Origin: Isurus oxyrinchus
Taxonomy: Eukaryota
Reading direction: 5' to 3'
NCBI GenBank assembly: GCA_026770705.1
Contig: JANJGN010000034.1
Coordinates: forward strand, 4,774,001 to 4,838,000
DNA length: 64,000 nt
Positions 5,292-43,027 of the stretch are shown one piece after another. The notes under the pieces are model-generated. The model was not told the origin of the DNA, did not search any database, and saw nothing but the letters and a program-made list of their open reading frames with translations. Within the stretch, counting starts at the first letter, position 1; each line of letters begins with the position of its first letter. The position numbers were made by a program, and so were the translations under genes.

Positions 5292-5327
5292 AAATTGCGG
5301 CGTTGAAAGTGAAACTGCAAGAGGCAG
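5292..5327 (+). CDS. 36-nt coiled-coil micro-exon (EIAALKVKLQEA)
   Basis: tcattacag|AAATTGCG...GAGGCAG|gtcagt; phase 1-1, heptad I..L...L pattern. Confidence 0.8.
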
Positions 5328-5639
5328 GTCAGTGAAGAAAACTTAGCTTGAGTTTTGAAGCATTTGAAAACCTTGCTGATGTGAAACATGCCACCTGGAC
5401 TCATAGTATGGTAACTGATGATACAGCAATAATGATGCAGTAGACTTTAGGTTCCTTAAGGTTATTAGGCACAAGGCAACCAAGGAATCTATGAAAACTA
5501 ACGGTGGAGATTGTGAAGCTAATGAGCTCCATGTTCTAATCCTCCTACTACGCAAAGTTTGTACCAGACGACTGCTGAATTGGATTGCATTCAAAAATTA
5601 GTTAAGGACAATTATTTTAAATGCATTACAGTCAATTTA

Positions 5640-6760
5640 ACATCAGTGATGGAAAAGATTTGTACATGAAAATGAACTAGCACATAATTAAGTGATGTGG
5701 AAAACCTTTGCTGAAAGAAGTAAAACTTGAAGATTAAGTTTGTTGTGACGTGTGAGTGGGGTTCGATCTACGTAATACAATTCAGTGTGAATAGATTTCC
5801 AAACCGATCTTAAGAGAGTGCCACATGACGGACTTGTCAGCAAAGCTCAGGTCAATGGTAATATTTCGGCAATGATTGCATGGCTTTCAGGGTTGTTCCG
5901 TGGCAGGAAGCGGACCACAGCGGTTGACAATTGTTTTTATTTGCACCAGAAGAATTTCCAAAAGTGGGTTAGCTCTGAAGGATGTGCAAAATATTACATT
6001 TTGAAAGGAAGTCAAAGGGCTGACACAATACAGTAACGGATATATTTCTAAACATTTTGCGGAAACCGAGATACCTGGGTTCTTTTATGCTGATTTCGTT
6101 AACTCTAGCATGGTATTTTTAGAAATTAACTCACGAGGCAGTTGAGATTCTGGCCTTTATGAATTGAGGCCCAAAATACAACGTTACGGAGGTTAAGGTG
6201 GAACAGTTAAAACACTGCATCGATAGAAAAAGGGAGGATTCTAGTTCTGTGCATCGTTGTTTTGAAACACCCTGAGAGTTTTGTTTTAAAGACTCCAGGT
6301 AGTTACACCTGTTTTCTTTGTTTTTGCAGTGGTTAATGCATTGAGGGATTTATGTTATATGGGAATATTTGAGAAAATGGAGTTGTTGTCCTAAGAAAAA
6401 AAAATCATTGCACCATAATTATAATAAATACTCTAAAATTATTAGTTGCCTTGTCAGAATAGGTAGAACGGCACCGTTCCCTTCTAATAACAGTAACCTA
6501 GCGACTGGTGCAATGTGCTTAGAAAAAAACAAACGATTGTTAAAACAGGAAGATTTCCTTAAACAGCGGGTGGTTATGATCTAGAATGCAATGCCGGAAT
6601 GTGGGATGGGGAAACAGTCAGTCGAGCTTTTCAAAGATTAAATAATTAAATTAATTAAGGGACGACATTGCATTATTTTTTGGGGTCTCATATCATAGAT
6701 CTCGATTAGTAACAATGAACAGAAGTGGCGCATTCTGGGCTGCAGACATCCAATGATTCT
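5640..6760 (+). mobile_element. Degenerate CR1-type LINE (RT region and 3' end)
   Basis: gatttccaaacc...gagtgccacatgacggacttgtcagcaaag resembles DFQKAFDKVPH.RL..K; CR1-like 3' tail; many stops. Confidence 0.6.
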
Positions 6761-7021
6761 GGTTAATTTTCAATGCTGTTATATCTTAGCATGGATCGTG
6801 CAACACTGCAGTTAACTTGTTTTTTTTTTTTGTTTTCAATATTGCAACAAATTGTATCATGGATTTCTGATGCCAGTTAATGTGTCTTGTGAAATTTAAC
6901 AAGTGTATGTTAAACGTTCAAGGTGACATTTCTTTTGTGTCTTAACTAAAAATAACCGTCCATTTGAGCAAATAGGTTAATGTGTAAGCACTGTTATCAT
7001 GTTTTTTTTTTTACTTCCCAG

Positions 7022-7048
7022 AAGAAAACCTAAAGCTGAAAGATCAAG
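7022..7048 (+). CDS. 27-nt micro-exon (EENLKLKDQ)
   Basis: T-tract acttcccag|AAGAAAAC...GATCAAG|gtattt; phase 1-1. Confidence 0.8.
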
Positions 7049-8249
7049 GTATTTTTTTTTGGGGGGGGGGGGGGCGAAATGTATTTCTTTCTCAAAGATA
7101 TCTAATGAACTCACTGTAACAAGACTGTGCATTTGCCTTTTCCAATTACACAGCGCTCTAATTAGGAAATGCCACCTTCAAGATTATTTAAAATGTGCGT
7201 GTATGAGAACGTTTCTTGTTCATGTACTTTGGGTAAGCGAGATTCAAAGTACTGTGCAAGACTCTAGCCTTCACAGAGCTTTGCAAAAGTACACGTGCAA
7301 CACTGTGCACAATTGTGTTCTCCAGATGTATTAGATAGATCACGACCGTTGCATTTATATCCAAACTGAACTCCGTACACCTGCGTTAGGCAAACATTTC
7401 ATGCTGTGCAGAATTCTTGTATATAATAAAAATGCCAGAAATAAGCAGATGTTGTTATTGAGAAACATGAGAATGTCTATGCCCCCCTTCTGGATGGGAA
7501 AAAAAAGAATCATGGGAGAAGCAATGGAGATCTTTAAGTTCACGAAGTGATTCGATAGAGATCACATAGAAACTATATTTCCTATTCCAGGGATGCTGAT
7601 CTAGCAACATATAAAGATGGAACCGGGCTGCACATTTAAATGCAGTTGTCAGAGAACTGGCCAATTTAATCATACTCCCCTGCTTTATTCCCTAAACACT
7701 CAGATGTATGTTTTCCTGAAACAGCTTGTGGAATTGTTTCTTAACCTTTACATGCCAGCCAATTCCTTTAGATTTTCAGCTGTTCCACTCCCAAAAAAAA
7801 ACAGTCCTAAAATTGCGTTTGATAGTAATGTTCTTTGGTTATCCATGATCTGGTATTACCTAAAATCGTGCCACAACGAAAATTACTTGACATATAAAAG
7901 CTTCTATAATTGGGAAATCTCCATTACTTGTGCTGTGAACCTTTTGAGCAAAGAATATGTCTAACTCTCTATAACTTGGCCAACAATTACAACTTACATT
8001 CAAAGTGTCTTCAAGTTCAGTTCTTATGCACAATATCAATCCACATTTCATGATGTATGGTACCCAAACTGCGCACAATTAGCCCAAGAGGCCCAATTAG
8101 AGATGCACAATTGTTTTTGTGGGAAGCCATGACTTGTTAGTCTGACCAGTTACAATGGTAAATATAATTAGACTACTTAAATGAATATAGACCCTGACAT
8201 CTCCAGGACTTGCAAAAGGACACAAAAAATGCTTTGCTCTACCTTGGAT

Positions 8250-11458: not shown

Positions 11459-11494
11459 AGGCAGTTATTATGTTCAAAAAGTTCAAAAATATTG
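11459..11494 (+). CDS. 36-nt micro-exon (EAVIMFKKFKNI)
   Basis: atttatttttattcccag|AGGCAG...AATATTG|gtgagc; strong sites, phase 1-1. Confidence 0.7.
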
Positions 11495-12281: not shown

Positions 12282-12308
12282 AGCAAGACTCTCAATGTCT
12301 GGTTGACG
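12282..12308 (+). CDS. 27-nt micro-exon (EQDSQCLVD)
   Basis: atttattttag|AGCAAG...GTTGACG|gtgagt; consensus donor, phase 1-1. Confidence 0.7.
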
Positions 12309-12859: not shown

Positions 12860-13020
12860 CAGGAAATCCTTCCCTGAGTACTACCTCTACGACTGTACAG
12901 CAATTCGGCAGCATTGCACTGCATAATTAGCCTTAATTTTTTGTGTTGAATCCGAGGACTGGAAATCAGGAACAAAAACTGTCTGCTTCAGATGCAGAGG
13001 TACCACAAAGAAAGCCAGAA
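12860..13020 (-). mobile_element. Deu-domain-type SINE remnant
   Basis: gactgtacagcaattcggcagcattgcactgcataattagcc resembles the SacSINE1/AmnSINE1-like core from memory; heavily decayed. Confidence 0.35.
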
Positions 13021-13238: not shown

Positions 13239-13265
13239 ATAAAGCAGCACGTGAAAAGAATTCAG
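13239..13265 (+). CDS. 27-nt micro-exon (DKAAREKNS)
   Basis: tctcatctcactcaacag|ATAAAG...AATTCAG|gtgaaa; phase 1-1. Confidence 0.65.
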
Positions 13266-14895: not shown

Positions 14896-14948
14896 GCTAT
14901 AACAGGGATGATCATCGTTCTTTAAGCATAATGTTTTATGCTGTTTCC

Positions 14949-15221: not shown

Positions 15222-15257
15222 GAATTGCAAGCTTTCGGAAAAAGCTGCATGCTACAG
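15222..15257 (+). CDS. 36-nt micro-exon (GIASFRKKLHAT)
   Basis: tactttcctctccag|GAATTG...GCTACAG|gtcaga; similar to 5292-5327 (IA..x..KL pattern, CAG|gtcag donor). Confidence 0.75.
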
Positions 15258-16323: not shown

Positions 16324-16350
16324 AGGAGAAGCTGGGCAGTAAAGATAAAG
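16324..16350 (+). CDS. 27-nt micro-exon (EEKLGSKDK) with GC donor
   Basis: ttaatattgacag|AGGAGAAG...GATAAAG|gcaagt; similar to EENLKLKDQ; AAG|GCAAGT matches the GC-AG donor consensus. Confidence 0.7.
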
Positions 16351-22586: not shown

Positions 22587-22880
22587 GTGCGTAAACTGGG
22601 AGAGAAGTGAAAACAGCTTCAGACATTTTTTTTCTGAGAACGGAAGTTAATGCATACATATATGTCGATTCTGAAGGAACGTTGAAGCAGTTGGCTGCAT
22701 TGGATCCCTCTTTTAAAGAGCTGACTCAGCCAAGGCAGGCTGACCGTCCTCCCTCTGTGCTGACTGATCCCCTAATTCTATGATTGAAGACGGAGTTTTA
22801 TTTCAGCGCATGATGCCAATTTGACGAAGCTGCAGAAATTAGGTGAGATATCACCATTGGATTTTTGACATTTGCTCGCC

Positions 22881-24150: not shown

Positions 24151-25324
24151 CCCTTATACGTATTGAAAAATACATTTTCAAATTGGAGCTTAGAGGTTTT
24201 CCAGAAAAAAGGAATCCAAATAGAAATCAATAGCTTTTGAGTCATTTGGGGGCAAACATGATTTGATGTGTTGAGCAATTTAACCTAAAACATATTCATC
24301 ATTATTGAAAATAAAATCACACTAAATATTCCACCTCAGCAAAGCTCCTCCACTATCATGAACCTCTCGAACTGTCTTTTTGTTCACCAAAAATGCCGGG
24401 CTGAACGAGCAGAAGCGCTTACCAATTACACTTTTTGGCAGAATTTGGTCAGTGCTGCAAATGCATTCACAAGCTACTCACTCCAGTCTTTTCATTGCAA
24501 ATGTCTAAATCCTCTACAAAATATTCACTGGTTTAACGCTATATTTGATACTGCTATACTTTTCCAGCAACATATCATTACCATCACTAAGACGCCCACA
24601 TTAACTTTATTTTACGTTCCCCAAATTAGCTCTGGTCCAGTTAATCTGCTGCTGAAATCCGCGTTCATGTCACAAACATGTTTATTACAGCGAATTATAT
24701 GCTACCAACCAGTCATAATCCCTCATTTGCTTGCACATGTCACGTTCACATTTCGCCCCTTTAATCATTGAGCTGGAAACGCTGCCGGTCAAGCAATATC
24801 CGGTTTTGAAAATGTACCATTCTCATCGCTTTCAAGTGCCTCTATTGTTGCGTCACTTCTTGGAACTGTATTTTATCCTGCATAATGAGCCTTCCGGAAT
24901 ATTAGCACTTCAATATGTCTGCCCTCTTGAGCGTCGCCGAAATTCTTTCCTGAACAATTGGCAGCTGTCCCTTCATCAGTCCATTCCAAAGGCGTTACAA
25001 TCATCTTTCCAAAACTCTGGGGTACTGTGCGAAACCTTATTCCAATATGGTAGTCCTAGAAAATTTCATCGTCAAATAACCTATTGCCATGAGGATGAAT
25101 GACGGTTTAGGTGGCTCAGTGGCAATCTTCACTTTAAAACACTCTTTTGAGCTGTCTAACTCAATTGAATATGTGACTATAAGCTGCCGTTATTTCAGCC
25201 GAACACAATGTGCATTGTTGACTTACAGGAGGCACCCTGGGGATTGCATAAGCTGTTGTAAGACACCCCTCCTCCCACCCACCCCCGCTTACGCAAAATA
25301 ATTTGGCCTGATGTTGGTAAGCAG

Positions 25325-25351
25325 AAGACCAACTGAAAGAGAAGAAGACAG
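25325..25351 (+). CDS. 27-nt micro-exon (EDQLKEKKT)
   Basis: aagcag|AAGACC...AAGACAG|gtaact; peptide fits E-x-x-L-x-x-K consensus; acceptor lacks a good pyrimidine tract. Confidence 0.65.
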
Positions 25352-25488
25352 GTAACTGAGTTTAATTTTCTTGATATCCAAAACATTGTTTCAAATTCAC
25401 TCAATCAATGCATATAAGGAATATTCATTATCATCCTCCAAACAGCGTGAATAATTAAATTGGATTTCATTCATATATCTACTTTTAG

Positions 25489-25515
25489 AACAAGATATGA
25501 AATTTAAGACGAAGT
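25489..25515 (+). CDS. 27-nt micro-exon (EQDMKFKTK) ending in T
   Basis: tatctacttttag|AACAAG...ACGAAGT|gtgaga; starts EQD like 12282 exon; terminal T plus AG of the next exon gives TAG. Confidence 0.5.
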
Positions 25516-26206
25516 GTGAGACAACTAACTAGTTGAGAAATTCTGATGTTGGTGCAGTTACTTTTCAAATCTCCACGTTGCACCTCAGGAATGGCATTTC
25601 AGCCTTTATGGAGTGTAGCTAAAATAATTCTGAATGGGCTTTCTTGGAGGAAAGTGGCAATGGCGATGGATGTTTACGTTAATTTAGACTGTTTTACATC
25701 CAGTACGAGGGTAGATAGAGTGTAGGATATTTCCTTCAGTGTGACAGCCCAAAATGCGTGCGTTAGCAGCTGCGGGTTAACCGCAAGTCACTAAAAAATG
25801 ATTTCAAAAATATGTGGTTTGCACACAAAGTGTGGTTGATTTCGGAGACTTCCTCTCTAAGATTTTGCTTCCACAGGGCGGTCAATTTCAAATTACAGAG
25901 CGGTGATTGATAGATCATGCTTGAAATTTTCATTTTCTACAAGTCATGATAGCCGGAAATAACCATGATTAACATCAGGCATAGTCTCATATAACGGTGC
26001 ACAATTCTCTATGTGTGAATGTCATTAGACTGTTTCAATATATGTTTGATTCGACTGCAAAGAATGGACCCACTTTCATACTGAATCACACTCGGAAACA
26101 CTGATTGATCTTACAGATCTTAAATGAGGAGAAGGATGAACATTTGCAAAGAATGTGTTCTCCAGTGATTCAGTTAAAATAATGCTCTCCAATGTTGAAT
26201 TTTCAG

Positions 26207-26242
26207 AGCTGGACTTCCTCAGAGAAGACCTTGAAAACAAAG
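26207..26242 (+). CDS. 36-nt micro-exon (ELDFLREDLENK)
   Basis: gaattttcag|AGCTGG...AACAAAG|gtgaga; phase 1-1, L..L...L pattern. Confidence 0.85.
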
Positions 26243-27744
26243 GTGAGATAGACGTCTTTTGGCTATTTCTTATGGGGGCTTGCACAGAATCTGGTTTCAA
26301 ATGGACTCTGTTACTTATGTTTTCCTGGAACTGTGCAGGTTTATCATAATTGGAAATTAAGCAGCGAAATAATGATAAAGATAATAGGCACAAAGCAAGG
26401 CATTAATTGGTAATGGATTTTGATATTATTAGTTTAGAAAAACAAAATGGTCAAAACAACATTGAGAAATCCTCCTGTTATTCTCATAATGCGGCATGTG
26501 ATGCACAGTGAGAAGCAATATGTGATCTTGAACTTCGATGCCATCAGAAATATAATACATTCAGCAGTGAAGGTTTCCACCACGAATTTCTCTCCGTCAC
26601 TGAATTGGCAATACCGTGCTTCACGTCTCACAATATAATTTTCCTTCTGTGCTGGATATATCGCTCAAAATTTGTTAAGAAAAGGAAACAGTTCGAAGCT
26701 ACTGAATTTTTTGATGCACACTTCAGAGATCAGTTGAAAGCCAGCAACATTCTTGTGGCCGTTAAATCACATGTGTCGCATTCCGGAGGATGATGGCAGA
26801 TTACCATATCTAATAAACTAGCTGTGTGTTGAGTCAATGGCATTCTTCCATGGTCAGCTGTATTGATGCAAATGTTTCAGTTCGGTATGTGTTTAACATT
26901 TCATTAATATCCTTTTCCTACTGTCTTTGGATGTATCTCGTATCTCAGCATCATGAGGCCTGGGCCTATGGGACTCTGGTGGAATAATGTTACATATTAA
27001 ATTTTCAAATGTTTTGCACTATTCTGTATGTTGCTATAGGCTGGACCAGATCTGCATCATTCCACAGCGATCTTTGAACAAGCATCACTTCCACTTGGTT
27101 AGAAACCCAGAATATTAGGCCAAGGGAAGAGATTATTAAACAAAAATATGTTAGAAGTGATTCACGTTTATGATTAAAGACAAAAGTGGCTTTGCTTGAC
27201 CATATAAAAATCAGCTTAATTACATTTATTCAAAGACTATTTCTACAAAAGCACAAATGAATTTCGGCAGCTTTTCAGAGAATGATGCAGCGCAGAAAGG
27301 GAAAGAAAAGTACCGACCATCAGTTCTCAATTAGTTAGTTCAAATGGCTATCTAAATAACTTTTATGCTGAAAATCTGACAAGTATGTATTTAATTCAAT
27401 TATTGCAAAAGATTTGAAGCCGTGCCTTCTATAGCATCTCAAATACAAGCATTTAAAATAATTGTTACCTACCAGTATCTGTTAATTATATAAATCTTTT
27501 TTTTTCCTTAAATGCCTGCTATCGAAAGAGCGATCCTTTTGCCATTGGAAACAGTTTCTCCGATTTCCTTTATGACCATTTTACGGGGATTGTCAAGCCA
27601 TGAAACCAACAGTTAAGTGTAGGTGACGAATAACTTATGAGTTCCGATTGTAAAGAGGTGCAATGCCAAAATGTCATTAGAACAGGCAAGTGTCCTAATG
27701 CAATTAGTTTCGAACAGTCCTGAGGCATGCTTCTATTTAAATAG

Positions 27745-27771
27745 AGGAACAGCTGTGAAAGAAAAATATTG
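27745..27771 (+). other. 27-nt micro-exon with in-frame stop (EEQL*KKNI): poison exon, truncating exon or null allele
   Basis: ttctatttaaatag|AGGAACAGCTGTGAAAGAAAAATATTG|gtaaga; TGA at 27756-27758 in the frame used by all sister exons. Confidence 0.7.
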
Positions 27772-28854
27772 GTAAGAACCTGAAATCTATTGTAGGCAGG
27801 CATTAATCTCTGCGTGAAGCATTTTGAAACATATCAAATGTCTTCGTACTGAACCTAAGCTTTTGAATATTTTGAGCCGTTAATATTCACAAGTACTCTC
27901 TCAAAAAACTGCATGTAATCCAAATTATGAGAACATTCCCAAATATTTGAACAATGACAGTCAGATACATATTCTATTTTCTATGCAAAGTGTCCCACAG
28001 AGTTGTAATATCTTGCCATATCATGCTGATCAAAGCAAATACGCCGCCTAGACGCGCAGATATAACGCTATATAAATGAAGATATAAATAGTAATATTAA
28101 TAAAAAAACAAGTTGATTTTTGAGGATTAATCTGAGAACAGGCTGTAAGGCACACCGTGGCGCTCAGGAAATAGGACTGATAATCAGTATAAATTTACAT
28201 TCCCTGAAATACTATATTATAAAGTGGTGTTCTTCACAATTGGAAATAGATCCAAATGTTACTTGAAGGAATTCACGAAATTGACATCAAAGCAATCAAG
28301 ATGGATCGATATTCCATCGCTTTGCAATTCTGTAGGAAAATAACCAGGCCTGATATCTAACCTCGTTTACAGCATTGCACAAGTTAAAATTCCGGCCCGA
28401 ATAGCATTTTGATTTACTAAATTGCAAAGATTAGCCATCTCAATTAAAGCACAATCACTCATGTCATCATCTTCATGAAATCTCCATATATGGCTTTCCA
28501 ACCAGTTTTGAAGCAAGTGGATGAATATCATGAGTGTCGACGTATCATCTGCTGGATGAAGTGAGGTGTGCACGAGGACCAAACCTGAGGAGTTCGTGGG
28601 CTGCAAAGGGTACTATAGGAATGGATCACGTAAGTAGTTTACAAACAGAAAAAGTACATATACTTGAGCGTGGACCTGGAGCCAAAGTGAACATCTGTAA
28701 ACAAGAACGCTTAATTGGACAGTAGGATTTGAGACCATACAGGAAACAGCTTCAGAAAGCTTTGAATAAAGGAAACAACAGCTTCAGAAAACTTTCAACG
28801 AATTAAGGTTTACGGATGCAGGGGAACATTGGAAAAGAGATATAGAAAGGTACA

Positions 28855-29943
28855 AAACAAAAACAAAAACAGAATTACCTGGAAAAACTCAACAGGTCTG
28901 GCAGCATCGGCGGAGAAGAAAAGAGTTGACGTTTAGAGTCCTCATGACCCTTCGACAGAACTTGAGTTCGAGTCCAAGAAAGAGTTGAAATATAAGCTGG
29001 TTTAAGGTGTGTGTGTGGGGGGCGGAGAGAGAGAGAGAGAGAGAGAGAGAGGTGGAGGGGGGGTGGATGTGGTTATAAGGACAAACAAGCAGTGATAGAA
29101 GCAGATCATCAAAAGATGTCAACAACAATAGTAAAAAAGAATACATAGGTGTTAAAGTTAAAGTTGGTGATATTATCTAAACGAATGGGCTAATTAATAA
29201 TGGATGGTAGGGCACTCAAGGTATAGCTCTAATGGGGGTGTTTTAAAAAAAAATAATGGAAATAGGTGGGAAAAGGAGAATCTTTATAATTTATTGGGAA
29301 AAAAAAGAAGGGAGAAACGGACAGGGGGTGGGGATGGGGGAGGGAGCTCACGACCTAAAGTTGTTCAATTCAATATTCAGTCCGGAAGGCTGTAAAGTGC
29401 CTAGTCGGAAGATGAGTTGTTGCACCTCCAGTTTGCGCTGGGCTTCACTGGAACAGTGCAGCAAGGCAAGGACAGACATGTGGTCAAGAGAGCAGGGTGG
29501 AGTGTTAAAATGGCAAGCGACAGGGAGGTTTGGGTCATTCTTGCGGACAGACTGCAGGTGTTCTGCAAAGCGGTCGCCCAGTTTAAGATTGGTCTCTCCA
29601 ATGTAGAGGAGACCATATTGGGAGCAACGAATGCAGTAGACTAAGTTGGGGGAAATGCAAGTGAAATGCAGCTTCACTTGAAAGGAGTGTTTGGGTCCTT
29701 GGACGGTGAGGAGAGAGGAAGTGAAGGGGCAGGTGTTGCACCTTTTGCGTGGGCATGCGGTTGTGCCAAAGGAGGGGGTTGAGGAGTAGGGGGTGATGGA
29801 GGAGTGGACCAGGGTGTCCCGGAGGGAGCGATCCCTATGGAATGCTGATAGGGGGGGGGGGGGGGGGGGGGGGTGAAGGGAAGATGTGTTTGGTGCTGGC
29901 ATCATGCTGGAGTTGGCGGAAATGGTGGAGGATGGTCCTTTGA
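28855..29943 (-). mobile_element. 5'-truncated Penelope-like retroelement (GIY-YIG endonuclease region and 3' repeat) with 13-bp TSD
   Basis: ORF: RDRSLRDTLV, CPRKRCNTCPF, NLVYCIRCSQYGLLYIGET (GIY-YIG), GDRFAEHL, PVACHFN, LGTLQPSGLN; ATAGAAAGGTACA at 28842-28854 and 29944-29956. Confidence 0.92.
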
Positions 29944-31609
29944 ATAGAAAGGTACATTTTAGTGGGAGAAACGTTTGCTGCCTGAAACATGCTCCGAAAG
30001 TAGTTTCCAAATTGTTCCAGGTCATCTGATCTCCAAGGAGTGATTCCCAGGTTGCCAAGAAGGTGCTCATGGGGAACCCAGGAATCCATTATGAAAGGAA
30101 AGCATGGGAATAAGGCGAGAACATAAAATTTCCATGGTGAATTTCAATGCACCGGCAGCGAACTTCCGAAACACCAAATTAAATTGTTGACTTCAAATGG
30201 ATCTGATTCTATTTACGGAATTGTCAGTCAAGAAATGTTAATAGAATTTAAATAAGTCCTTTAACATGGCTAACTATATTACTAACTGCAAAACACCCAC
30301 GTGAATGATAGTCCACCCACCAGGAGTCGCATCACCAGACTTCCCGACCGATTTCAGAGCAACACCCCAGACTGCACCACGCTTGACCAGATTATCCCCA
30401 ATCCCCACTATTAACCCCCCGGAAAAGGGACACCCTGCCCAAACCCCGCTATGACTCTTCCGATTACCTTCCCCACACAATGAATACGAACGTCAATGAC
30501 TGCCAGCCTGAGACTACCCAACAACCCCCCATTCCCTTAATCCCCCATTAACAAGTCCCATGCTTCCTACCTAGACACTACATACTCGACCACACCACAA
30601 CGCACCTTACGAACTCCCCCTCACTCCCCGCCCGAACACCTGCTACTCTGCCTCTCAAAACCTAGCGATCCCTGCATGCAGCCTAACCTCTCATCCAATA
30701 CATTGGCTCTGTTAGCTTATTCCCGAGTACTCATTGTCGCCAGGACAATTAAACTTCTCTGGTTTATCGCAGTTGCTAAGTTGAAAATGGTGTCTGGCTC
30801 TATTTCTACTGCTTTGCATTGGAATGTGTTCTGAGATGTTATGCAGCATATTTCTCAACATGACCAGATTGGCAGTCCTGACAGGGAATAGGCAGCTCCT
30901 GGCTGATGAAAGTCAAATGCCTGGAGTGGCACTCTGACTGTGACTCCTTTTCAATGGAAATGCCAAGCCATTGTTATGCGGCAAGTAAGGAAATGTAATC
31001 AATTCATAGATAGCTTGCATAATTTGTTTCTTTTTCCGAAGAAAATAAAATGCACAATTTAAACATTCGCCTATTTGCTGTATAACTCTTCCGCTGAATC
31101 AATGTAAATCAGCAGTTTGTTGCTAATTCGTGTGCTTAATTAACTTGAAACATGCATTGAATCCTCAGAACTTGAACAACTCAGTGCAAAGTGCAGTAAT
31201 TGACGGCAAACACGTATGATGGGAGTGGAAATTCATTATTGGTCAGCAGCCTAAATAGGAACAGAAGCACATTGGTTGATTTTGATTTTGGAAGTTCAGG
31301 ACAACAGGTCTTAGGGAGTTTTTTTTTTGGCCGTGGAGGGACACAAGTGTGATGTTGAGAGTTGTCTATGGAATCCAAGGGCCAATCTACGAGGAAATGT
31401 TAAGCAAGTTTTTTTTTATTCTATAATATTTTTAAAAAGACTCAGAGGTGGTCAATTCGACATTATAAATTTATTGACGAGAACATTTGGAACATATGCA
31501 GATTTAAAACAAATCCACTAGTGATGGATTCTAGGGCTTGGGGAAGACCAGTTTAAATTACGCAGCCCTTGGAACAGTGATGCCAAATCAGATAAATATG
31601 AATGGTGCT

Positions 31610-32560
31610 AAATATAAATGTAAATTATCTCTGTTCCAAAACATCAAGGCACGAGGTCTATGCGGTAGCATCCCTGACCCAACAATTTGCCACTGCTTTC
31701 TTAATGACCTTCCTTACATCATGAGGTCAGAACTGGGATCATTCAGCGATACTGCACACACTTAGCACCAACCGTGACTCCTCAGATACTGAAGAATGCT
31801 CTGTCTAAATGCAACATATCATGCACAATATGTCGAGTTGTGTTGACAAGTGGCAGGTAACATTCAGGACAGAAAAGTCCAGCCAACGGTCAGATCCAAC
31901 AAGGGAGAATCTACGCATCATCCCATGACATTCAATTACATCACGATCGTTGAATGATACACAATTAACACACTGGGGATTACGATTGCTAACAAAATTA
32001 AATGGACACGCCATACGATCAGAATACTGTGGTTACAAGAAAAAAAGTCAGAGGTTAGGAATTCCTTGTTGCAAAAAATCACTTCAGGACTGACCAACGC
32101 CTGGTTCAAGGCATTATTCAGATGTGTGATGGAATACTCTCGACTTGCCTCGATGCGTGCAACTCCAACATCATGCCAGGTGCTTGAAAACAGCTTGGCC
32201 AAAGCAAGACGATTGATTGGGATTGTAGGAGTAAATTCAGAGCTGTTTGGAGTCATACCTAGCAGAAAGGAAGATGGCTGTGGTGCAGGAGGTCAAACAT
32301 TTATAATTCAAGATTTTAACTACAGAGGTTCCTCAGCTAGTGTTCTAGACCCAACCATCTTCAGTTGCTTCATCAATAACCTCCCTTCCATCATAAGCAC
32401 AGAAGTGGAGCTCTTCGCTTATTATTGTAAAATTCTCAGCGGCATTGGTGTCTTCTTAAATGCTGAAGCAACCCCATGCCCAAATACAGAAGGATCGGGA
32501 CAGCATCCAGTCTAGGGCTGACAGGTAACATTTGCACCAAAGAATTGTCAGATAATTACC
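31610..32560 (+). mobile_element. Two fragments of a CR1/L2-like LINE RT region
   Basis: GSIPDPTICHCFLNDLP and SVLDPTIFSCFINNLPSII..VELFA resemble GSVLGPTIFSCFINDLP...FADD. Confidence 0.65.
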
Positions 32561-33037
32561 AGCTCCAACTAGACGGGGTCTAAGAGCCGACACTTAACAC
32601 GGATGCTTTTATCACATCATAAGAACAACAAAAATGTGCAGACAACTCCATGATTTAACCATGCTCTATAGAGATGGATCTGTGCACGTCATTCCAAGAG
32701 TGGTCAAAAGGACGATGCTTGGTCGCAGTGGTGCACAGTCATCCGTGTGATGCATCACAATGTTATACTTGTACGCAGATTGTAGACATGTGTCTGCATG
32801 GCCTATAAAATGTATTTACACAACATAACTTTTTTGTGTGAGTTTAAGTGGAGATAGCGAGATCAGCGTACATGTGTGATCAGCATTTCCTTACAGCTAA
32901 CTGCATTTGTCTTGAGTTATTCGAAAGGTTTGTTTGAATAGAAAAAAAAAACATTTCAATACACTACGGGATTTTGACGTAACTTTGTTAGTATTAGTAA
33001 TGGTGTTCCCGTCTATTCCTCTTTCTCCCTTCTTCAG

Positions 33038-33064
33038 AAAAAGAATTGGAAGCAAAAAAATTAG
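33038..33064 (+). CDS. 27-nt micro-exon (EKELEAKKL)
   Basis: ctctttctcccttcttcag|AAAAAG...AAATTAG|gtaaag; strong sites, phase 1-1. Confidence 0.85.
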   Translation, partial: KKNWKQKN

Positions 33065-33211
33065 GTAAAGTACATGATGTCAGTTGCATTGTGTAGTATT
33101 ACTGAAATTCTTAGGAGTCCATATAATTTGGGAAATATAAAATGCCAGAAGAGCAAAAAGTCAATCACTCTCCAGCGTCTAACGAAGGGCTGTCTATGGT
33201 CCCTAATTCAG

Positions 33212-33247
33212 AAATCGAGAATCTAAAGAAACCCGGAAAAGATAAAG
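33212..33247 (+). CDS. 36-nt micro-exon (EIENLKKPGKDK)
   Basis: ccctaattcag|AAATCG...GATAAAG|gtctgt; EI..LK start as in 5292 exon; 147-nt intron upstream. Confidence 0.7.
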
Positions 33248-34399
33248 GTCTGTAAAGTTAAACACAAGTATACGCTGTGCAATTGTGAAGGCGATTGTTA
33301 ACAGGTTCAAAGTATTCTACTCCTTGAGGCAGGACTGCCATTTAAATATTTTAAGGCAGATATCCATGCACTTTTATTACATATCTGTGGGTTTTTAATG
33401 CTATTGCTGCTAATTATCCCAAGAGTGAATATAGACCAGGTCTTACTGCATGGATATAATTTATATATTATTTTATTAATCAGAGGAGTTATAAATCTCT
33501 CAACGCTATGAAATCATCAGTAAGCGTGCCAACATCGATAGCATGTTGCAGGGAACGTCTTGGAGGCAGTAACTAAAAAAAAAAATGACCCTGGGTACTG
33601 TTTTGAAGGGCGATTGCACCACTGCCCCGGGACTAGGAAGATTGATATTGCAATCACGTAGCAGAGTTTGATAATGCCTCGGCTCCATAAGTTTCCCTTG
33701 ATTCAGGACAGATCTGTTCGTCTCCGCCAGCTGGAATGAGTTGACAGGCACAGAAAGGGTGGGATAGCCTCCTGAAATGCGCACTCAACAATGTACCTCT
33801 TGCATTTGCCTCTTTCCTTCACAGTGTTTGTAAAAGTAACCACTGTGCATTAATTGTGAAGATGATATCCATCTTGAAAATGAGGACACACTCCCTAGTG
33901 CTGTGTAGCAGTCGCAACGTGCTAAATTGGATATTTTTGGAACTGATATTGGCTGTGAAAATGGAATTCGTGAGGAACTGTGGGTCATTGGCAGCAGTAG
34001 ACTTGTTTTCAAGCGTAATATGATAATTCATGATGCAGCTTGTCGCTTATCATATTAACATGAAGTCGGAGCTCAGCCATTGCCCTTAAAGGATTTCACA
34101 CAACCACGACAAGAGCAACAACAAGCATAGCTATAATACAAGTGGCAACGTAGTGAAGCAAAAACAGGAAAAATTGTAAATCGATGGATGGAATCAGAAT
34201 GTGAAGGGCAGCGCAAAGCGATGACGAAAATAACGGATCAGGTTACAGTTTTTCATTCTGCCAACTCGAAATGTGAATGGGGTTTTGTAATTAAAATTAA
34301 ATATCAAGTGGAGATGAGTACTCCTCAATATGCACATCCTCAGTTAAGGGAGATGCCAACATTTCTGTATAAAAAATAAGGTTAAAGGAATCCAACTAT

Positions 34400-36030
34400 T
34401 TGCAACTAAAAGAGCCGAGTGAATGACCAATGACGTCACCTGAATCGCATAAGGGAATGTTGATGCAATTTGCTTAATTCAGCGGAATTTAAAGAAACAG
34501 TTGAATGCTTTGGACAACACAAAGAGAGTGAGCCCTGACAATATGCTGGCAGTGTTAATGAAGGCTTGAGCTCGAAGAAAAGTTAGATAACTGGCTAAAC
34601 TTCTCCACTGCATCTATAATGGTGGTGTCCACCTGACAATGTGGTAAGTAGCGAAGCTGTGTCCTATTCACAAAAGAAGGACGCATTCAGTGCTTCCAAT
34701 TAAAATTGCAATTTGACGCTCACTATATTCCACAAAGTGATGGAAGATGCTATTAATCGGCACTGGCACAGCTATACTACGTTGACCTTCGCAATTTACA
34801 GTGTTCTGGCAGGTCCACTCGGTTCCTTTGTTCATATTTTTGTTGGCCAAAATATGGACAGCGGAATGGAAAAATAGTGGGCAGGGCACAATTGCTTGCC
34901 TACAATAGAAGGCAGTATTTGAAAGAATGTGCCATCATGGAGGCCGAGCAAACATTATATAATTGCAAGATAAAGGCAAAGCTCCCCGCTGGTAAAGTTT
35001 GAGTTAGTGCTAGTATGCGGCCAAAAAATATTAATTGGAGATATTTTCTGATGAGACCACAATTTTCAGAGTCATTTGAAACTCCGTAAATACTGATGCA
35101 GTCAATGCTCTTGTGCATTTAGAGCTGCAAAACATTCAGGTTTTGGATGAAAATTGGCATGGGACATTCATGCAAAAGTAGAGAAAGTATCGGTCCATCT
35201 TCCTCAAGATGGCATCTAAGTATCCCCGCTTCATATCAAGCAGTAGTATATTTGGTGAATGCCACACTATAATCTTTGTTGGTGGATTAGGGTTTCCCAG
35301 GCTGTCGACATTAGGGGCCACTTTTCAGGGAATATGAACCGTTACTGCCAAACAAACTTGATGGCTAATAGAGCAGAGCAGAGCCCGAGAAATAGGCTCA
35401 GATAAACTCTTCTCATAACTTTACAAAGTTTGTCTACAATCTAAAAGACAAACATCAAGTGTATAACCACAATTGACTTATTGAGTGCGGCTCCAACAAC
35501 ACTCTAGAACATCAACGAGATCCAGTAAAAAATTAATCAACCCTCCTAATCAGAAGAAAATTTGCCACATTCATCATTTGCTCTTTCCACCATCGACACA
35601 TGATAACTTCAGTTGGCATTATATAAAAGATGCTCCTCAGGAATCCACCAAGCCAACTTGGAAAGCTTGTTCCATTGGAGGAAACTTTACCACCGATATG
35701 GATAAAGCCAAAAGACACATGAGAAGAGTACGAGTTTCAACTGTCACTGCAAGACACTCACCAGAGGCGCGCGGCAGGATATTTCCATTACTTAATTGAC
35801 ACTAGATGAGACTCATGGAATCCCGAAAGGAGGTCAGAAGCAAATAATATATATACATACTGAACAAATTAAAACGGTGTCTGCATATGCTCCTATATTG
35901 CTGTGAACCTTAGGGCTACCAATCTAATGCTGGGAACTGGTATACTGCTGGATGCCTCATTTTCGCTGGCACAAACATAATGTGCCAAAAGGCCAAATGC
36001 TGTGCCTTAAACTTCTTATAATTCTACGGT
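34400..36030 (+). mobile_element. Decayed LINE RT fragments
   Basis: ccctgacaatatgctggcagtgttaatgaaggcttgagct resembles GPDNIPA.VLKTCA; CR1-like 3' end near 35800-36030. Confidence 0.5.
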
Positions 36031-37937
36031 TACTGATGCTTAGTAGTGCTCTTACACACCTCATAGATTTTTTTGAATGAAGCCAACATTTTAATTTGTG
36101 GCAGTCATTTGTCCCATTCCAGTTCACGTCCTGAAAATCCTTCCTGATTTTGTATTCTTGCCAGTTCCCTACTGATTAATTAAAGCTTTTCTCCAACCTA
36201 CTGCGGACAGCTCTTGCTCTTCCCACTTTCCATGCCATTATCCCAATCAGCATTTTATTTTTTACCTCTTTGCTCATCTCGCACTTATCTTTTGTTCCTG
36301 CAAAGTGCATGCAATTGGGCATTGGGGCCCTTTTGGAACTTTGATTACAGCCGCCTCTATCTATGTGTTACCTAAGCATTCAATAAGCAGCACATCCCTC
36401 GGGAAATTCGTTAAGAATAGACATAACCTTATAAACTCAACTGAGTGTGAATTCTCAGGTAATTAAACAATCATTACTTCCCAGCTTCCCCCATTCAACA
36501 CAATCCTCGGTCCTCAATGTTTGGGAGAGAGGATGTCTCTCCTTCAATTGAAATTGAATGTTTTTCACTTGTTGGAAATAAGCAATTTTTGCTGCATCAT
36601 TGTTATCGTCGATCATATGTCTCCTTTACACAGTAGAGTTACAGCAAACAAATAACTGTACCTATTCTTTCCACTGTTAGGTGACTGTACTCTGGTGTCT
36701 ATTTCTCCCCTCCTCCCTTATGTATCTCAAGGATTCTATCGCAGAATGCAGCTCAATTCACCTGAACCAATGAGTCTCCGAGCACAGCGATTTGTTGCAT
36801 AGAGTCCACTGTGGCGTGGTCAATAATCTCCCACAATCTACCATGTAAAAAATCCGCCTGCAGTACCATGTATTGTGACTTTTTTCTGGGTGAAAAGCAG
36901 TAAATTTCATGAATTGTGACTTAGTTTAATTCAATACATAGATGTACCCTAGTGTTTAGTAAATATCTAAATATTGACCTCAATAATTATAGATACATTT
37001 TCATCTATCATTTTTTTTTCAGTTTATGATTACAGTTAGGGTGTAATAACTCACAACTTAAGTGTTTTTCCTTAATGGCCGAGGACTGAGGTATATCTTA
37101 TATTTGCTTATTGTAGTTGCCCCCAATGGAGGGAAAGTTTTCTCTCAACAGCGGTTCACAGCATCTTAACTACCTCAAATTTTTCACACTGTAAATCCAG
37201 GGCAAACACACCTCCTTTATACATTCTCACCTCGTGATTTCACGATTAAGTATCTCGCCCCTTCCTCGTGAATATGTCCAAAAGCTCTCCCAGAGTCAAG
37301 GTTAATGACTCTTAGAATTGTTCCATCATAAAAGCAAGCCGCTCTGATCTTCGGGTACATGCTGCCTCTGTCAGACCAAGATGTTGGGCTGCACTAATCA
37401 TTAACCCATGCAGATCCGGCAGTCAAAACTCATGTTATTTTTTTCACCACTGAATTTAATTCCAATGAATTGTGAGATATTGCACACCAGACAGCTATCG
37501 CTTAATATGTACAAAAAAATATATATTATTCACGTGGCCATTGGTTATTTCGTCAATTGTATTAAATCTTTGTCACATAATCGCGGAACGTAAGGCCAAT
37601 GAGAATGGATTTCCTATGGAATTGTCGCGTACTTTAATGGATCTTTGTAAGTCGTGTTGATTTGAGAAAAGCTTATATATTGATGGTTATCAGATATCAG
37701 TTTTGTAATAGTTATCAATCTTGAATACAATAGAATGCACAGTTAAAAATGTAAAAATATAACATCGCTCTCGAAGGTGGTCCCTGACACCGCATGACTT
37801 GAATGTGATGCTATCGCATATGTGACACTAATGGGGATTGCCCTGTGTTTCAACGCAATTGTCCAATTAAACTCATTTTAACATGACAGTCCCATCATAG
37901 CAAAGCTCTGAGCCGGTATTCCTTCACTCCATTGCAG

Positions 37938-37964
37938 ACTGTAAAGTTCATTTGGAATTACCAG
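37938..37964 (+). CDS. 27-nt micro-exon (DCKVHLELP)
   Basis: ccttcactccattgcag|ACTGTA...TTACCAG|gtgagt; consensus sites, phase 1-1. Confidence 0.8.
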
Positions 37965-38904
37965 GTGAGTGCGTCGCTTGGTTTCAGTGAGGAAAAAATC
38001 TCATTCAGTTCCCAATCCAGCTATCAAATTTTATCAACCCTTCTCAGAGGAGGCCTTTTGTTATGGGGCCCTCATTAGCCCCATACGAAGATGTTTTTCT
38101 GGAAGGCGGCAGTGAATCATTTTGTTCAACCTCTGCAGGCCGCATACAGTTCCCTATTCAAACACTTGTTTTCAAGCACATGACCAGTAGAGCCTTTACT
38201 CCACTTCAATTGTAAACCATACGGAACGATTTGTATTGCTGAATACAACCCTATCATTCTGCTCTTCTGTATTGGTGCAGTATGGTTTTTCACTTTTCTA
38301 TTATTTCCTAACATATGCAACTGCGTCTCGCATGAGAGAAACCAAAATATTATGTTAGACAGCGTTTTTTCCCAATCTAAGCTCACCCCATGATTATTTA
38401 GTAATTAATTTTTCAAGTTTAGCCACTATTGTACGGTAGGCGACGTCGATGTCAATTTCAAAAAGAAGAAACAAGCTCCCACATATATCACTGCACAACT
38501 TAACTTATAATCTCTACTTTAGTGATGTTGGTTGATGACTAGTTGTTGCCCAGAATACCAGGGTGAACAATTCATGAGAATTCATGTGATTAATTTATAT
38601 GGCAGTGCTGCATGAAATTCAATGTTAATTGTGTCGTGTTTGCCTGGCCAATGATCCAGTGGTCATTATCACAGTCCATGGCTAACAGAAGAAACCGCAA
38701 TTATTTGCTGATGCTGTAAAATCAATAATATTGAGGTATATAAGATATTTTCAGGCGGATTACCGGTTGGAAAGTGGCCATGCTCTTCATTTAAGCAAGC
38801 AAGTGGAAAGTCACTGGGAGCTACATCTTGCACTCATTCACCAATTCATATTGTTCATTTTCAAAGATAAACGCAAAAATAATGCGGATGTTGGAAATCC
38901 AAAA

Positions 38905-39470
38905 AGAAAACAAAAATGAAAATACCTCGAAAATCTCACCAGGTCTGACAGCATCTGCGGAGAAGAATATAGTTAACGTTTCCATATGTCCGTATGACTC
39001 ATCAAAAAATCTATGGAAAAGTTGATGAGGGTTGAAATATAAGCTGGTTGGGGGCGGGGAGGAGGGGACAGGTAAAGCTGGATAGAGGGCCAGTGATAGG
39101 TGGAGTTTATTCCCCCTGTACGATCCTTTCCCCCTACTCCAACCCCAGTAAGGCTATCTGTACGTTGTTCCTCCTGCTTTCTATCCAAAATGTCACTTGT
39201 TAGCACATTTATTGACCAATTACACCACCTTCAATACCTCTTTGTACTTTTGCCTGTGACATATTTTGGCAAACATGACCTATTACTGGCCCTCTATCCC
39301 GCTCTAACTTTCCCACCCACCTTAAACCAGCTTATGTTTCAACTCTCTTCTATTTTTCCTTAGTTCTTTTGAAGAGTCAAATGGACTCGAAAAGTTAAAT
39401 GTATTGTTCTCCACAGATGCTGTCAGACCAGCTTTGTTTTTCCAGGCATTTCTGTTGTTAGATTTGTTTT
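38905..39470. repeat. Inverted pair of Penelope-type terminal repeats (about 190-bp arms, about 180-bp spacer)
   Basis: ggtctgacagcatctgcggagaa...ataagctggtt...ggatagagggccagtgatagg on plus at 38905-39100; reverse complement at 39281-39470. Confidence 0.75.
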
Positions 39471-40250
39471 GTTCATTTTCAATGAAGTTGAAAATCGAAG
39501 CTCTTAATAGCTTTTCAACACGAATGTGCAGAGCAGCATAACGTCTAGAAGTAAGCATTGCTATGACCTTGGATGTATGGTCAGGTATATCGACACTCTA
39601 TCTGCCAGTGTTCACGTTATGGAGAAAACTTCATCTTTATATTTGCCTCTTGCCTGTTAGATTTTGGTGGAATAGCACAGGCGTAACTTGCATCTGCATC
39701 CACATTTTGTTGTAACGTTACTGGCAGTGGTTGCTTCGGTATCGGCGAGGTAGTTCTGAACTCTATAAAATGTGAGAATCCCTTAATACAGCCTGAGAGA
39801 GGGAAAGGGAACACATTTTTTTTTTGTCTCAAATATTAAGGAAAAAGTGTTTCACCACTTAATTTCTTCAAAGCGTGTTTCCTTGGAAGGTTTAACAGAA
39901 TGATTGCTGGGATGGCGGCACTGACATATGAGGAGAAATTGAGTCTCGTGCGATTATATTCTCTGGCGTTCAGAAAATTGACGTGGGGGGGACCCAAATA
40001 AACCTGTAACTTTCGAACAGGGCGAGACCATGGAGAAATGGCCTTCTCCTGCTTATGTTTTCTAATCTGTTTTCTTATGCATGGCTCATGCTTCGTCTGA
40101 GTTAAACGAGAATTGAAAAAAAAAAGTACTGTATTGAGCCACAGCTGAAAACTAACATTATTGACCTCTAACAGCATTGATAATATTAACAATGAAGCTG
40201 TTTATTGAATTTTTCCTGCGCTCTTCTCTTCTTCTTACATTGTTGTTTAG

Positions 40251-40277
40251 AATGGGAAAACATAATTAAGCATAAAG
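40251..40277 (+). CDS. 27-nt penultimate exon (EWENIIKHK) preceding B30.2
   Basis: long pyrimidine tract ...gttgtttag|AATGGG...CATAAAG|gtcagt; Trp-containing 27-nt phase-1 exon of the kind that precedes the B30.2 exon in BTN/TRIM genes. Confidence 0.85.
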
Positions 40278-42506
40278 GTCAGTAATAGTGAATGCCGTGT
40301 CTCACCCTCTGGCTACTTTATCAGTCTTAAATCAGTTTACATCCCACAGAAAAGCTTCTTACCTATAAATCTATTTCCTACTGCTGATTTCGTCCCTGTC
40401 GCCTGAAAAACATAACAACAGCTATATCCACTGTCGCACCCGTGCATGCCTCCATAGCCCCTGCGAGATAATTCCATATTCGCCATTTTAGAGTGGTGAA
40501 ATTTACTTGACAATGCCGTTTTAAAGCATCTCAATGTCTACCAGATACCCTAAATGAGCTGATAAATGGGCATTGATTGCAAAGGAAATAATGCTTGAAT
40601 AAAGTGAAGAGTTTAAATTGTGAAAAGAAAACACGTTCAGCATCATAAAATAAACACCATATCAGTCAGTTACAACATCAATTTAAACGGATTGCAAATG
40701 TATTGAAACATCGAGAAAACGAGGACATTCAGTCTATCAGAAATGTGTGGACTGCATAAGTGCTTTGCAATTTAATATATGTTTCACTTCTTGGGCAATA
40801 AACAAATAAGTTGGATCTCCACCATATTACCAATCAAAAAATAAATAAGTATTGTATCAGCCACTGTTCGTATTTTCTTCCCATTTATTTACCTCATTAC
40901 TAAGAGTAATAGAGACTTATTCTTCACAATGTTCACACCCTTCATCATTTTCTGGACATCAGTGGAATCTCCATGCGTCGTTCTCTGCTTCCAAGGAGGA
41001 ACACACTCCTCTAAACTATTCTATAATCTTAGTTAAGTTATATATTGCTGTAAATTTTGCAGTAATTTCTGACTATAACTGCTCAAGTACAATCATGGCA
41101 TTCCTATAACATGTTGACTGTGATTTTACGCTGTGTCCCAGTTCCAGAAAGTCTATGCTTTCTTGGATTTTCAAAACCGAGTTTTGGAGTGACAACTGAA
41201 AAGAGCTTTTTTTTTTTAAGTTTGTTAATACATTGGAAAGGCCTAAAGCAGAGTGCCCTATCGAAAAATGGTCACAAAATTACATTTGGAGGATACCAAA
41301 ACTCAGCAACAACTAGAAGTGAGCTACAATAGAATGGCACCAGCTCATTTCAGAGAACGGGGAAGAATAGTTTACTTCGAAATGTTCTGCCTCGAACAAG
41401 GAATAACAGAATGCATTTAGTAAAGCTATTGAGGATTCAATTGGGCTCTCACAGCGTTGGTGGGTTAAAACTGCTGCCCTTTGCTGGAGAGGAGATAATT
41501 ACACAGTCTGGATCTAAAACAATGGCATGATAGAAAATGATGAAATATTTTTGAAAATTGAAAATAGGCTGCTGATTTGCCACAACTGCCAATAAGCGGG
41601 GCATATTGATGCGGCGATAATATCTCTCGGTTAGTAATCTAGATGCCCCAACTCATGCTATGTCAACATTAATTCTAATCGCACGACATAGCAGGAGCAA
41701 TTCAGTTTCTAAATATGTAATATAAACGATTATTAATACTTCTGAGCATGGAGCTTAACATCGAAAGTTGTTTATTTATCAAATATAATTAGTTTGCATA
41801 ATCCTTTGGTGGAGGGTGGGGGTAGGTGGTTGGGGGTGTGTGGAGCGTGTGGGTTTGGGGGCGCATGGAGGCTGGGGGGATGGCTGCGGTGGTGGTGTAG
41901 GTGCGGGGGGAGGGGGGGAGAGGGTATTGCCATCCTAAACTCGGTTATTGTGATCTTCATCAGACTGCAGACAAAACAACGTGGTTAAATTATTTCATCA
42001 TTCTGAAATGCCCTGTGGAGCCAATCAGTTCCAGCGAAATCATGCCGGGTATTGACACGAAGCCCGCATCCCCTGCAATAACAAAGGAACCAAAAAAATG
42101 ATGGATGGGTTTTTAAAAGTGGTTCATCTTTTTTTTTTACTTGAAAGGGGGTTGACAGGGTAGAGCAAGGCACGATTGATCTACATAAAGATGCTGTGCA
42201 ACTTGGAGGGTAAATAAAGGCATCTGCTTTCCAACGTATTTAATTTAGAAAAGAAGAAGTTTAGCCAGGAGATCGAGTAAACATTAAAATAGCAACCGGT
42301 CGGAGCGGTTAATAGGAATTGCATGGATATCTTTAAGGAAATCCAAATAATTGTACGAGGGTGGCAGGTATAGTCGGAGATTCTGATGCAGTAAAATAAA
42401 GAAGGTGGAGCAAATTAATGCTGTTGGGCCAAAATAGAAATTTCCTGCTTTTAACAGCATTTAATTTATGTATCTCTGTGTTCTTTGCCCCTTATTTCTT
42501 TTACAG

Positions 42507-43027
42507 TAAGTCTCCTCATGGACCCGGAGACATCTGATCTGCGATTCACAATTTCGAAGGAAGGAAACAGAGGCACCTGGAATGGCAAAATTCCACCCTC
42601 AGCCGAAAAGAAGCTAAAATATTCGGACAGCTGGACCATCTGGGCAGCAGATGGAATCCCACCAGGAAAGCATTACTGGCAGGTGTTGGCGAGCGCAGGA
42701 ACGATATGGAGCATTGGTGTGTCCCAGCGCCTCCTGGCCATGAACAGATGGCGCAGACATCTACCCAAGAATGGCTACTGGACTTTGATGCTGTGGAACA
42801 ATAAGGGTGAAACAAAGAATTTAAGGTCGTTCGGCGAATCCATTGTGCTCGTTCAGCTGAGCAAACTTGGTGTTTACGTGGACTATGAGGGAGGACGTGT
42901 ATCCTTCTACAACCCAGATACCAAAACACACCTGCATACTTTCAACGCCAAGTTCGCAGGCAAAGTTTATCCCGTCTTTCAACTCTGGTTTAGTACACGC
43001 AGTGACGGCTCCATTGTAATAGAGTAA
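42507..43027 (+). CDS. Terminal exon encoding a B30.2 (PRYSPRY) domain of a butyrophilin-like/TRIM-like protein
   Basis: cttatttcttttacag acceptor, phase 1; VSLLMDPET (LDP motif), GKHYWQV (WEV motif), WSIGV, PKNGYW, LGVYVDYEGGRVSFYN (LDYE motif), HLHTF, VYPVF; stop TAA 43025-43027, no internal stops. Confidence 0.95.

Follow-up and report, generated by a model that had tools for sequence, protein, structure and literature searches.

A predicted shark gene family in which micro-exon arrays would encode a long coiled-coil rod ending in B30.2

What kind of protein would be made by a vertebrate gene that places a long series of exons of only 27 or 36 nucleotides (nt) ahead of a single B30.2 exon? 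The question is raised by a 64,000-nt stretch of DNA from the shark Isurus oxyrinchus (positions 4,774,001 to 4,838,000 of contig JANJGN010000034.1, here C34, in a genome of 4.98 Gb), which we call the window and for which 1,000 kilobases (kb) of upstream sequence were also fetched. Positions are those of the window, with negative numbers lying upstream of it. A preliminary description had read the window as part of a butyrophilin (BTN)-like receptor with 15 symmetric micro-exons and a stalk of 130 to 150 amino acids (aa). Our analysis points to a larger gene of a different kind. With a probability that we put at about 0.58, the window would be the 3' end of a gene of ~818 kb that encodes a cytosolic coiled-coil rod with a C-terminal B30.2 domain, and no receptor. 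We label this gene A, and the other micro-exon array genes of the same contig B, C, D, and E.

The micro-exon array and its extent

The micro-exon units noted in the window were confirmed. An unbiased scan recovered all 15 of the units described earlier on the + strand, in phase 1-1 and flanked by AG and GT, apart from a GC donor at 16324; a further 36-nt unit at 22807-22842 brings the total to 16. When models trained solely on units upstream of the window were applied to it at a score of at least 8, they returned 12 units on the + strand and none on the opposite strand, compared with a mean of 0.33 and a maximum of 3 in 40 shuffled windows. Eleven of the 15 earlier units passed this held-out test. 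The passing 36-nt exons, all on the + strand like every exon named here, lie at 5292-5327 (held-out score 30), 11459-11494 (14), 15222-15257 (13), 26207-26242 (24), and 33212-33247 (18), along with the newly added unit (10). Those of 27 nt lie at 7022-7048 (28), 13239-13265 (9), 16324-16350 (26, the exon with the GC donor), 25325-25351 (24), 27745-27771 (20, with an in-frame TGA at 27756-27758), and 33038-33064 (25). Two of the four failures, at 12282-12308 and 25489-25515, are 27-nt candidates that we regard as uncertain, each with one weak splice site (an acceptor of -4.8 beside a strong donor of 6.1 in the former, a T/GT donor in the latter). The other two have good splice scores and a divergent peptide. 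They are a 27-nt linker exon with a Cys at 37938-37964 and the 27-nt penultimate exon, with Trp at position 2, at 40251-40277; both have counterparts in paralogs B, C, and E, and the linker also has one in a gene model of S. canicula. The series leads to a terminal exon of 173 codons at 42507-43027 (stop codon at 43025-43027), which encodes a B30.2 (PRY-SPRY) domain (Pfam SPRY, PF00622, E value 3.4e-14) that has no Cys and a net charge of +8.

The array is far longer than the window. Positions 1-5291 are intron, and the gene extends 775 kb further upstream, where 215 of the 227 catalogued units are found. The first micro-exon (C34:4,010,266) is at -763,734, or 764 kb upstream. At a score of at least 13, a position-specific model found 227 units on the + strand of 806 kb, as against none on the other strand there and none on the + strand across the 236 kb beyond the array upstream; this model was trained on the gene itself, and the held-out test of the window is the unbiased one. 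The units, which are to be taken as a minimum, comprise 99 of 27 nt, 90 of 36 nt, and 38 of 21 nt, with 36 of the 38 shortest in a single block. Looser thresholds gave 233-247 units, as against 3-7 on the control strand. The same lengths stand out when the peptide is ignored. In a length histogram of the 806 kb, the + strand had 34 units of 21 nt, 68 of 27 nt, and 83 of 36 nt, the opposite strand had 12, 14, and 10, and every other length from 15 to 60 nt had 3-22, so that peaks occurred only on the + strand. Donors are GT in 222 units and GC in 5, the median intron is 1.9 kb, and introns reach 25 kb. Across 818 kb there is a single B30.2 exon and a single homolog of the exon that we describe below as exon 1. 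The expected size of 15 exons and 130 to 150 aa thus gives way to at least 227 exons and ~2,240 aa.

Two local features of the array may be mentioned here. Between -148,525 and -133,629, a tandem duplication of 7.45 kb with 99.2% identity carries one 27-nt and one 36-nt exon, and represents either exon gain under way or a duplicate from assembly. At -187,893, a 36-nt unit contains two stops while its neighbours are intact, and is likely a dead duplicate exon.

The predicted rod and its family

Together, the catalogued units amount to 2,237 aa, rich in Lys, Glu, and Leu, with only 4 Pro in 2,216 aa. Hydrophobic residues recur with a period of 3.5 in three of four segments and 3.55 in the fourth, in keeping with the earlier view of a micro-exon coiled coil that leads to B30.2. 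Exon lengths fit the heptad as well, since 21 nt correspond to one heptad and 27 plus 36 nt to three; 27- and 36-nt exons alternate 160 times. The residue that anchors the a position is hydrophobic in 84-92% of exons, and with exons taken in genomic order the a-position register is maintained at 199 of 226 junctions. Provided that the preceding exon ends in G, the initial residue is Glu in 177 of 227 exons. Stop codons occur in 2 of the 227, compared with 49.7 expected under neutral change since the nearest duplicate. With a rise of 1.485 Angstrom per residue, the rod would be ~330 nm long.

From these properties we propose that at least 227 phase 1-1 micro-exons are spliced into a protein of ~2,450-2,600 aa, with a short head, the rod, and B30.2. 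Two chains would pair as a parallel coiled coil with Leu at a, bearing a pair of basic B30.2 heads at the rod tip that likely bind a partner. By analogy with a zipper protein derived from chicken BG genes, and with enterophilin, the rod may be a spacer, a tether, or a cytoskeleton-associated intracellular filament, for which length and register would count more than surface sequence. Because all of the exons are symmetric, any of them can be skipped in frame, which could make the length tunable.

Gene A is not alone. Four further B30.2 exons on C34, 40-59% identical, each have their own array on their own strand. Sampling recovered 22 units in 110 kb of B, 21 in 80 kb of C, 14 in 70 kb of E, and, for D, 6 in a stretch of 20 kb and 20 in one of 226 kb; the opposite strands of these samples yielded 1 unit. 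The genes span approximately 0.82 (A), 1.55 (B), 1.04 (C), 0.5 (D), and 0.72 (E) megabases (Mb). Because B to E were only sampled, it is by extrapolation that their arrays are taken as continuous and that B and C are given close to 300 and 270 units. Genes A and D stand head to head within ~25 kb (C34:3.975-3.999 Mb), with a 432-bp inverted repeat of 88% identity near -779,000, and it is possible that they use a common promoter. A small member, with ~10 micro-exons over 50 kb, was seen on a second contig (C21:89.67-89.72 Mb) inside a cluster of TRIM/BTN B30.2 exons; its sister in the tree is at C21:91,348,278.

The B30.2 domains of the family form one shark clade (support 100/99) that includes sequences from S. 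torazame, C. punctatum, S. canicula, and two more assemblies, apart from the BTN and TRIM rows. The tree has 42 rows, with 33 of 96 database proteins picked by hand, and is rooted at the midpoint; its BTN rows are not one clade. Relatives were searched among proteins of up to 2,000 aa, and one longer family member was found there. For those of S. torazame and C. punctatum, the annotation contains nothing but B30.2, which bears out the expectation that annotation would miss such an array. In S. canicula, the NCBI model XP_038668997.1, a database gene model, joins micro-exon-like, coil-like peptides to a family B30.2, and among the units compared with its last 9 residues before that domain, one of 27 nt from paralog D, the ortholog, matched best (score 21, the next being 16). 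Family B30.2 domains carry charges of +2 to +8, compared with a mean of -0.8 in 91 others, and R83 and R106 are invariant, hinting at an acidic ligand. An AlphaFold model of B30.2 from a 9-row alignment reached a predicted local distance difference test (pLDDT) value of 40 and was not used.

The remaining contents of the window are more ordinary. The first AATAAA past the stop, at 43731-43736 (+), is a candidate polyadenylation signal from sequence only. The upstream region of gene B occupies 53827-64000 (+) and begins a 22-kb block held in common with paralog C at ~78% identity. A Penelope-like fragment lies on the opposite strand at 28841-30088 (GIY-YIG match, E value 1.7e-4, just under the cut-off); a contig of a related species joins 28840 directly to 29943, indicating a recent insertion of ~1.1 kb in the window. 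Six short tandem repeat arrays in the window are unrelated to the micro-exon array, and an Rfam search returned no matches. Two presumed RNA runs (2 of 5 listed) over 25000-43400 gave repeat matches only and left most of the B30.2 exon uncovered, and are uninformative either way.

The 5' end and the competing explanations

Whether the rod is cytosolic depends on how the protein begins. An upstream exon common to A, B, and C ends at a conserved donor (in gene A, ~C34:3,998,628). It has frameshifting indels and no open ATG frame that reaches the donor in 220 nt, and is likely a non-coding exon 1. The exon that follows has an in-frame ATG in both A and B, at different codons; in gene A it is a phase 1-1 exon of 111 nt upstream of the array (C34:4,005,537-4,005,647), with a 70% homolog in B. 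Gene C is without the 111-nt exon. In both C and E, codon 2 of the first micro-exon is Met, as it is in just 1 of the 227 gene-A micro-exons. This pattern favours a cytosolic start, with translation predicted to begin in the exon after exon 1. A transmembrane (TM) check of the gene model, whose 5' end is itself predicted, gave a maximum 19-residue hydropathy of 0.84 and no TM segment. Two readings were rejected: conservation of the ATG in the 111-nt exon, and a set of candidate leader exons, whose frequency was near chance and of which none was common to the paralogs. A double CCAAT was seen at -771,367, downstream of the shared exon-1 donor.

Several observations weigh against a cytosolic rod assembled from the whole array. 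The splicing of the units into a single mRNA is a prediction from genomic sequence. Over the 24 closest pairs of duplicate exons, the ratio of nonsynonymous to synonymous changes (dN/dS) was 0.77, which is not different from 1 (Fisher p 0.30); by class, it was 0.29 in six 27-nt pairs, and 0.86 and 1.04 in the others. Among 21-nt exons, 34% have Cys at the d position, as do 38% of those of 36 nt, and B30.2 is free of Cys in 7 of 9 family members as opposed to 7 of 91 other B30.2 domains. The 111-nt exon opens with 9 codons that precede gene A's ATG and yet encode a peptide conserved with B, suggesting that another coding exon lies upstream; an ATG frame with a strong donor at -774,301 is a candidate. 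In D, E, and F, a search for homologs of exon 1 found none. Finally, the TGA at 27756 may leave gene A null in the sequenced genome.

The leading alternative, unlikely as we judge it, keeps the same exons and changes the destination of the product, which would be secreted or anchored as a type II membrane protein. An undetected short leader would be spliced to the 111-nt exon, whose start is hydrophobic, and the rod, cross-linked by disulfides outside the cell, would form a fibre or stalk tipped with B30.2, in mucus, egg case, glandular secretion, or semen. The Cys residues at the core d position of two exon classes and their scarcity in B30.2 are as this explanation would have them, as is the conservation in A and B of hydrophobic first codons in the 111-nt exon, and leader-like ATG frames with strong donors were found upstream of C and F. 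Yet chance alone yields 3.4 such frames per 100 kb, or 0.3-0.6 when a strong donor is required, and the paralogs have no leader in common. The non-coding appearance of the shared upstream exon also argues against export, as do the absence of the 111-nt exon from C, with Met in its first micro-exon, and the occurrence of just 5 N-glycosylation sequons in 2,006 aa.

Less probable still is an array without a single giant open reading frame (ORF), serving either as a bank of cassettes for shorter isoforms or as several transcription units with internal starts and ends. Symmetric exons would leave every subset in frame, promoters could hide in introns of up to 25 kb, and BG tails, in the account cited, are often alternatively spliced and truncated (PMC5938342). 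Such an arrangement would also suit the apparently weak amino-acid constraint, in which frame, length, and register are preserved while surface residues drift. Against it stand the one exon-1 homolog and one B30.2 exon over the entire gene, the register that holds at most junctions in genomic order, and the near absence of stops.

We give little credence to a true BTN/BG receptor with a giant cytoplasmic tail, in which the IgV, IgC, and TM exons would lie farther upstream or be too diverged to recognize. Its appeal is in the design of the exons, as short phase 1-1 exons ahead of B30.2 follow the BTN/BG plan in the sources consulted (PMC6790196, PMC4046983). In addition, BTN3A1 is the top PDB match of the family profile, and the top ESM Atlas features match BTN1A1-like proteins at 0.89 and 0.88, under the lead level of 0.9. 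The searches for a receptor head were negative, however. In the 40 kb that surround the 5' end, none of 112 ORFs matched Ig, RING, or B-box; 7 weak matches to unrelated domains fell below the cut-off. Among 21,674 ORFs of 1.064 Mb, an IgC profile built from BTN-like genes of the same genome reached a best E value of 1.9, and with a TRIM profile B30.2 was the sole match; motif scans for RING and B-box were negative. Matches to IgC (C2-set_3, PF22705; 37 matches) and to BTN-IgV (56 matches) included none on C34 at 2.7-7.5 Mb. A genome search with PF07686, in which 150 of 3,319 candidates were scored, is uninformative for the locus. Space is limited too. The head-to-head paralog D bounds gene A upstream, and in B, C, and E the first array exon is separated from the adjacent B30.2 exon by only 42-63 kb, an interval in which an Ig motif was not found. 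With the genome's own BTN-like genes on another contig and the family B30.2 in a clade separate from BTN, the receptor part of the preliminary description was not supported, and neither set of upstream exons that it had left in contention, Ig/TM or RING/B-box, was found in 1.06 Mb comprising the gene's surroundings and its upstream sequence.

It is similarly improbable that gene A is a recent pseudogene or null allele of a family that functions elsewhere. In favour of this, the TGA at 27756 lies about 5 exons ahead of B30.2, and a related species has CGA in its place in 3 of 3 covering runs (one study), with exon 27745-27771 otherwise unchanged. The change in the assembly's gene A is recent, and would yield a null or a headless product without B30.2 unless the exon is skipped. 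Against it, the exon has a weak acceptor (-1.4) and its omission would preserve the frame, the reading frame of the B30.2 exon is intact, and no further late lesions were seen; at the level of the family such an allele agrees with the cytosolic rod.

Other immune-type exons were seen in the genome. A very large B30.2 cluster occupies C21:82-118 Mb, with more than 130 of the 150 matches listed, some of them with stops, and BTN-type IgV, IgC, and TM exons lie on C21 at 95.6-113.9 Mb. On C34, a cluster of V-type and C2-type Ig exons at 15.7-17.6 Mb is 8 Mb from the family.

Ancestry and meaning of the family

The shark exons have precedents in two related systems. As described in the parts of the literature cited here, chicken BG genes have IgV, TM, and 13-38 exons of 21 nt with a split first codon and hydrophobic codons 4 and 7, and no B30.2 is part of that structure (PMC4046983, PMC5938342); a BG-derived soluble zipper protein is reported to control brush-border actin-myosin interaction (PMC4046983). 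On these accounts, gene A resembles BG and the zipper protein in encoding a coiled coil by successive short phase-1 exons, including 21-nt heptad exons (PMC4046983, PMC5938342, PMC8813856), and in having a tandem multigene cluster, in-frame stops, and a variable number of exons. The two differ in that BG, as described, adds a signal to its IgV and TM, whereas in the shark gene Ig and TM were not found, at least 227 exons are mostly of 27 or 36 nt, B30.2 is terminal, and the hydrophobic codons are 2 and 5. BTN genes are described with IgV, IgC, TM, few heptad exons, and B30.2 (PMC6790196, PMC8813856), and are recorded as present in sharks (PMC12841164). They and the shark gene have in common short heptad exons that run into a single B30.2 exon and a coiled coil that adjoins this domain, so the BTN/BG-like exon logic noted at the outset stands; in our genome, the TM exon is followed by a phase 1-1 exon of 33 nt at 3 of the 5 BTN-like loci fetched. 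The shark gene departs from BTN and BTNL in its missing IgV, IgC, and TM exons, in a stalk that is ~50-100 times longer, and in a B30.2 that is ~30% identical and in a separate clade, with 5 of the 6 family members examined on another contig.

It is suggested by the common phase 1-1 exon type and the C21 member that the family descends from a BTN-type tail of short phase-1 exons and B30.2, which would have lost Ig and TM and grown by tandem exon duplication. Other evidence does not settle this ancestry, and some of it points the other way. The tree does not unite the family with BTN. The best PDB matches are the BTN3A1 B30.2 for the family profile (E value 5.9e-30) and TRIM58/TRIM21 for the S. 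canicula member. A Trp-to-Asp spacing of 13 before B30.2, as in the shark gene, is found in just 1 of 10 BTNs, and the heptad register is unlike that of BG as described in PMC5938342. Two Amia ocellicauda database proteins named TRIM39 have an apparent type II TM segment, a coiled neck, and a C-terminal B30.2, without RING; their B30.2 domains cluster with gar BTN, outside the shark family.

Similar architectures exist in other proteins. Guinea-pig enterophilins are soluble cytosolic proteins with a leucine-zipper heptad rod and B30.2; they are not known to carry Ig, TM, or RING, and their rods have tens of heptads. The predicted shark protein resembles them, by architecture only, in its rod and B30.2 without Ig, TM, or RING, and differs in having ~320 heptads; set side by side by description only, the two are likely a case of convergence. 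An enterophilin has been linked to SNX1/EGFR trafficking (PMC13749957). TRIM and finTRIM proteins share with the predicted shark product a cytosolic coiled coil and a B30.2 in one exon, and finTRIM coils are described as having larger exons, of 96 and 234 bp (PMC2657112). Neither RING nor B-box was found in the shark gene, and a Trp-to-Asp spacing of 17 occurs in 33 of 59 non-BTN matches, as against its 13. Schistosoma micro-exon genes, in the account cited (PMC10526429), also have many tiny exons and long introns, but their sequences are unrelated and their products are small, secreted, and described without B30.2. On present evidence, the shark gene looks like a BTN/BG tail yet fails the Ig tests for both and the RING test for TRIM.

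We consider the chances about even that an undescribed gene family with six or more members exists in sharks, and that five of these fill ~4.8 Mb of a single small chromosome. Each of those five would encode a rod of 300-450 nm from ~230 to 300 or more micro-exons, ending in a basic B30.2 of its own clade, and the family would represent a soluble ruler or tether made from a BTN tail, its length tuned by exon duplication and skipping. We found no published description of such a family in the open-access literature, with the supplements of shark genome papers outside the scope of that search. What is new here is the map from 5' to 3', the layout of six genes, the Ig-less start, and the status of the stop across species.

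If the proposal is true, these would be among the most exon-rich genes of vertebrates, and invisible to present annotation. Titin has 363 exons, and if spliced as predicted, the shark genes would be megabase-scale genes with exon numbers nearing that of titin. In public shark annotations, they appear only as an isolated B30.2 exon or as a chimeric fragment. The findings bear on the origin of BTN, BG, and enterophilin-type tails and on a structural role for orphan proteins that combine a rod with B30.2. More generally, they would mean that the heptad-exon design of BTN and BG operates without a receptor head, at ~10 times the length found in BG, and has been kept in at least two orders of sharks.

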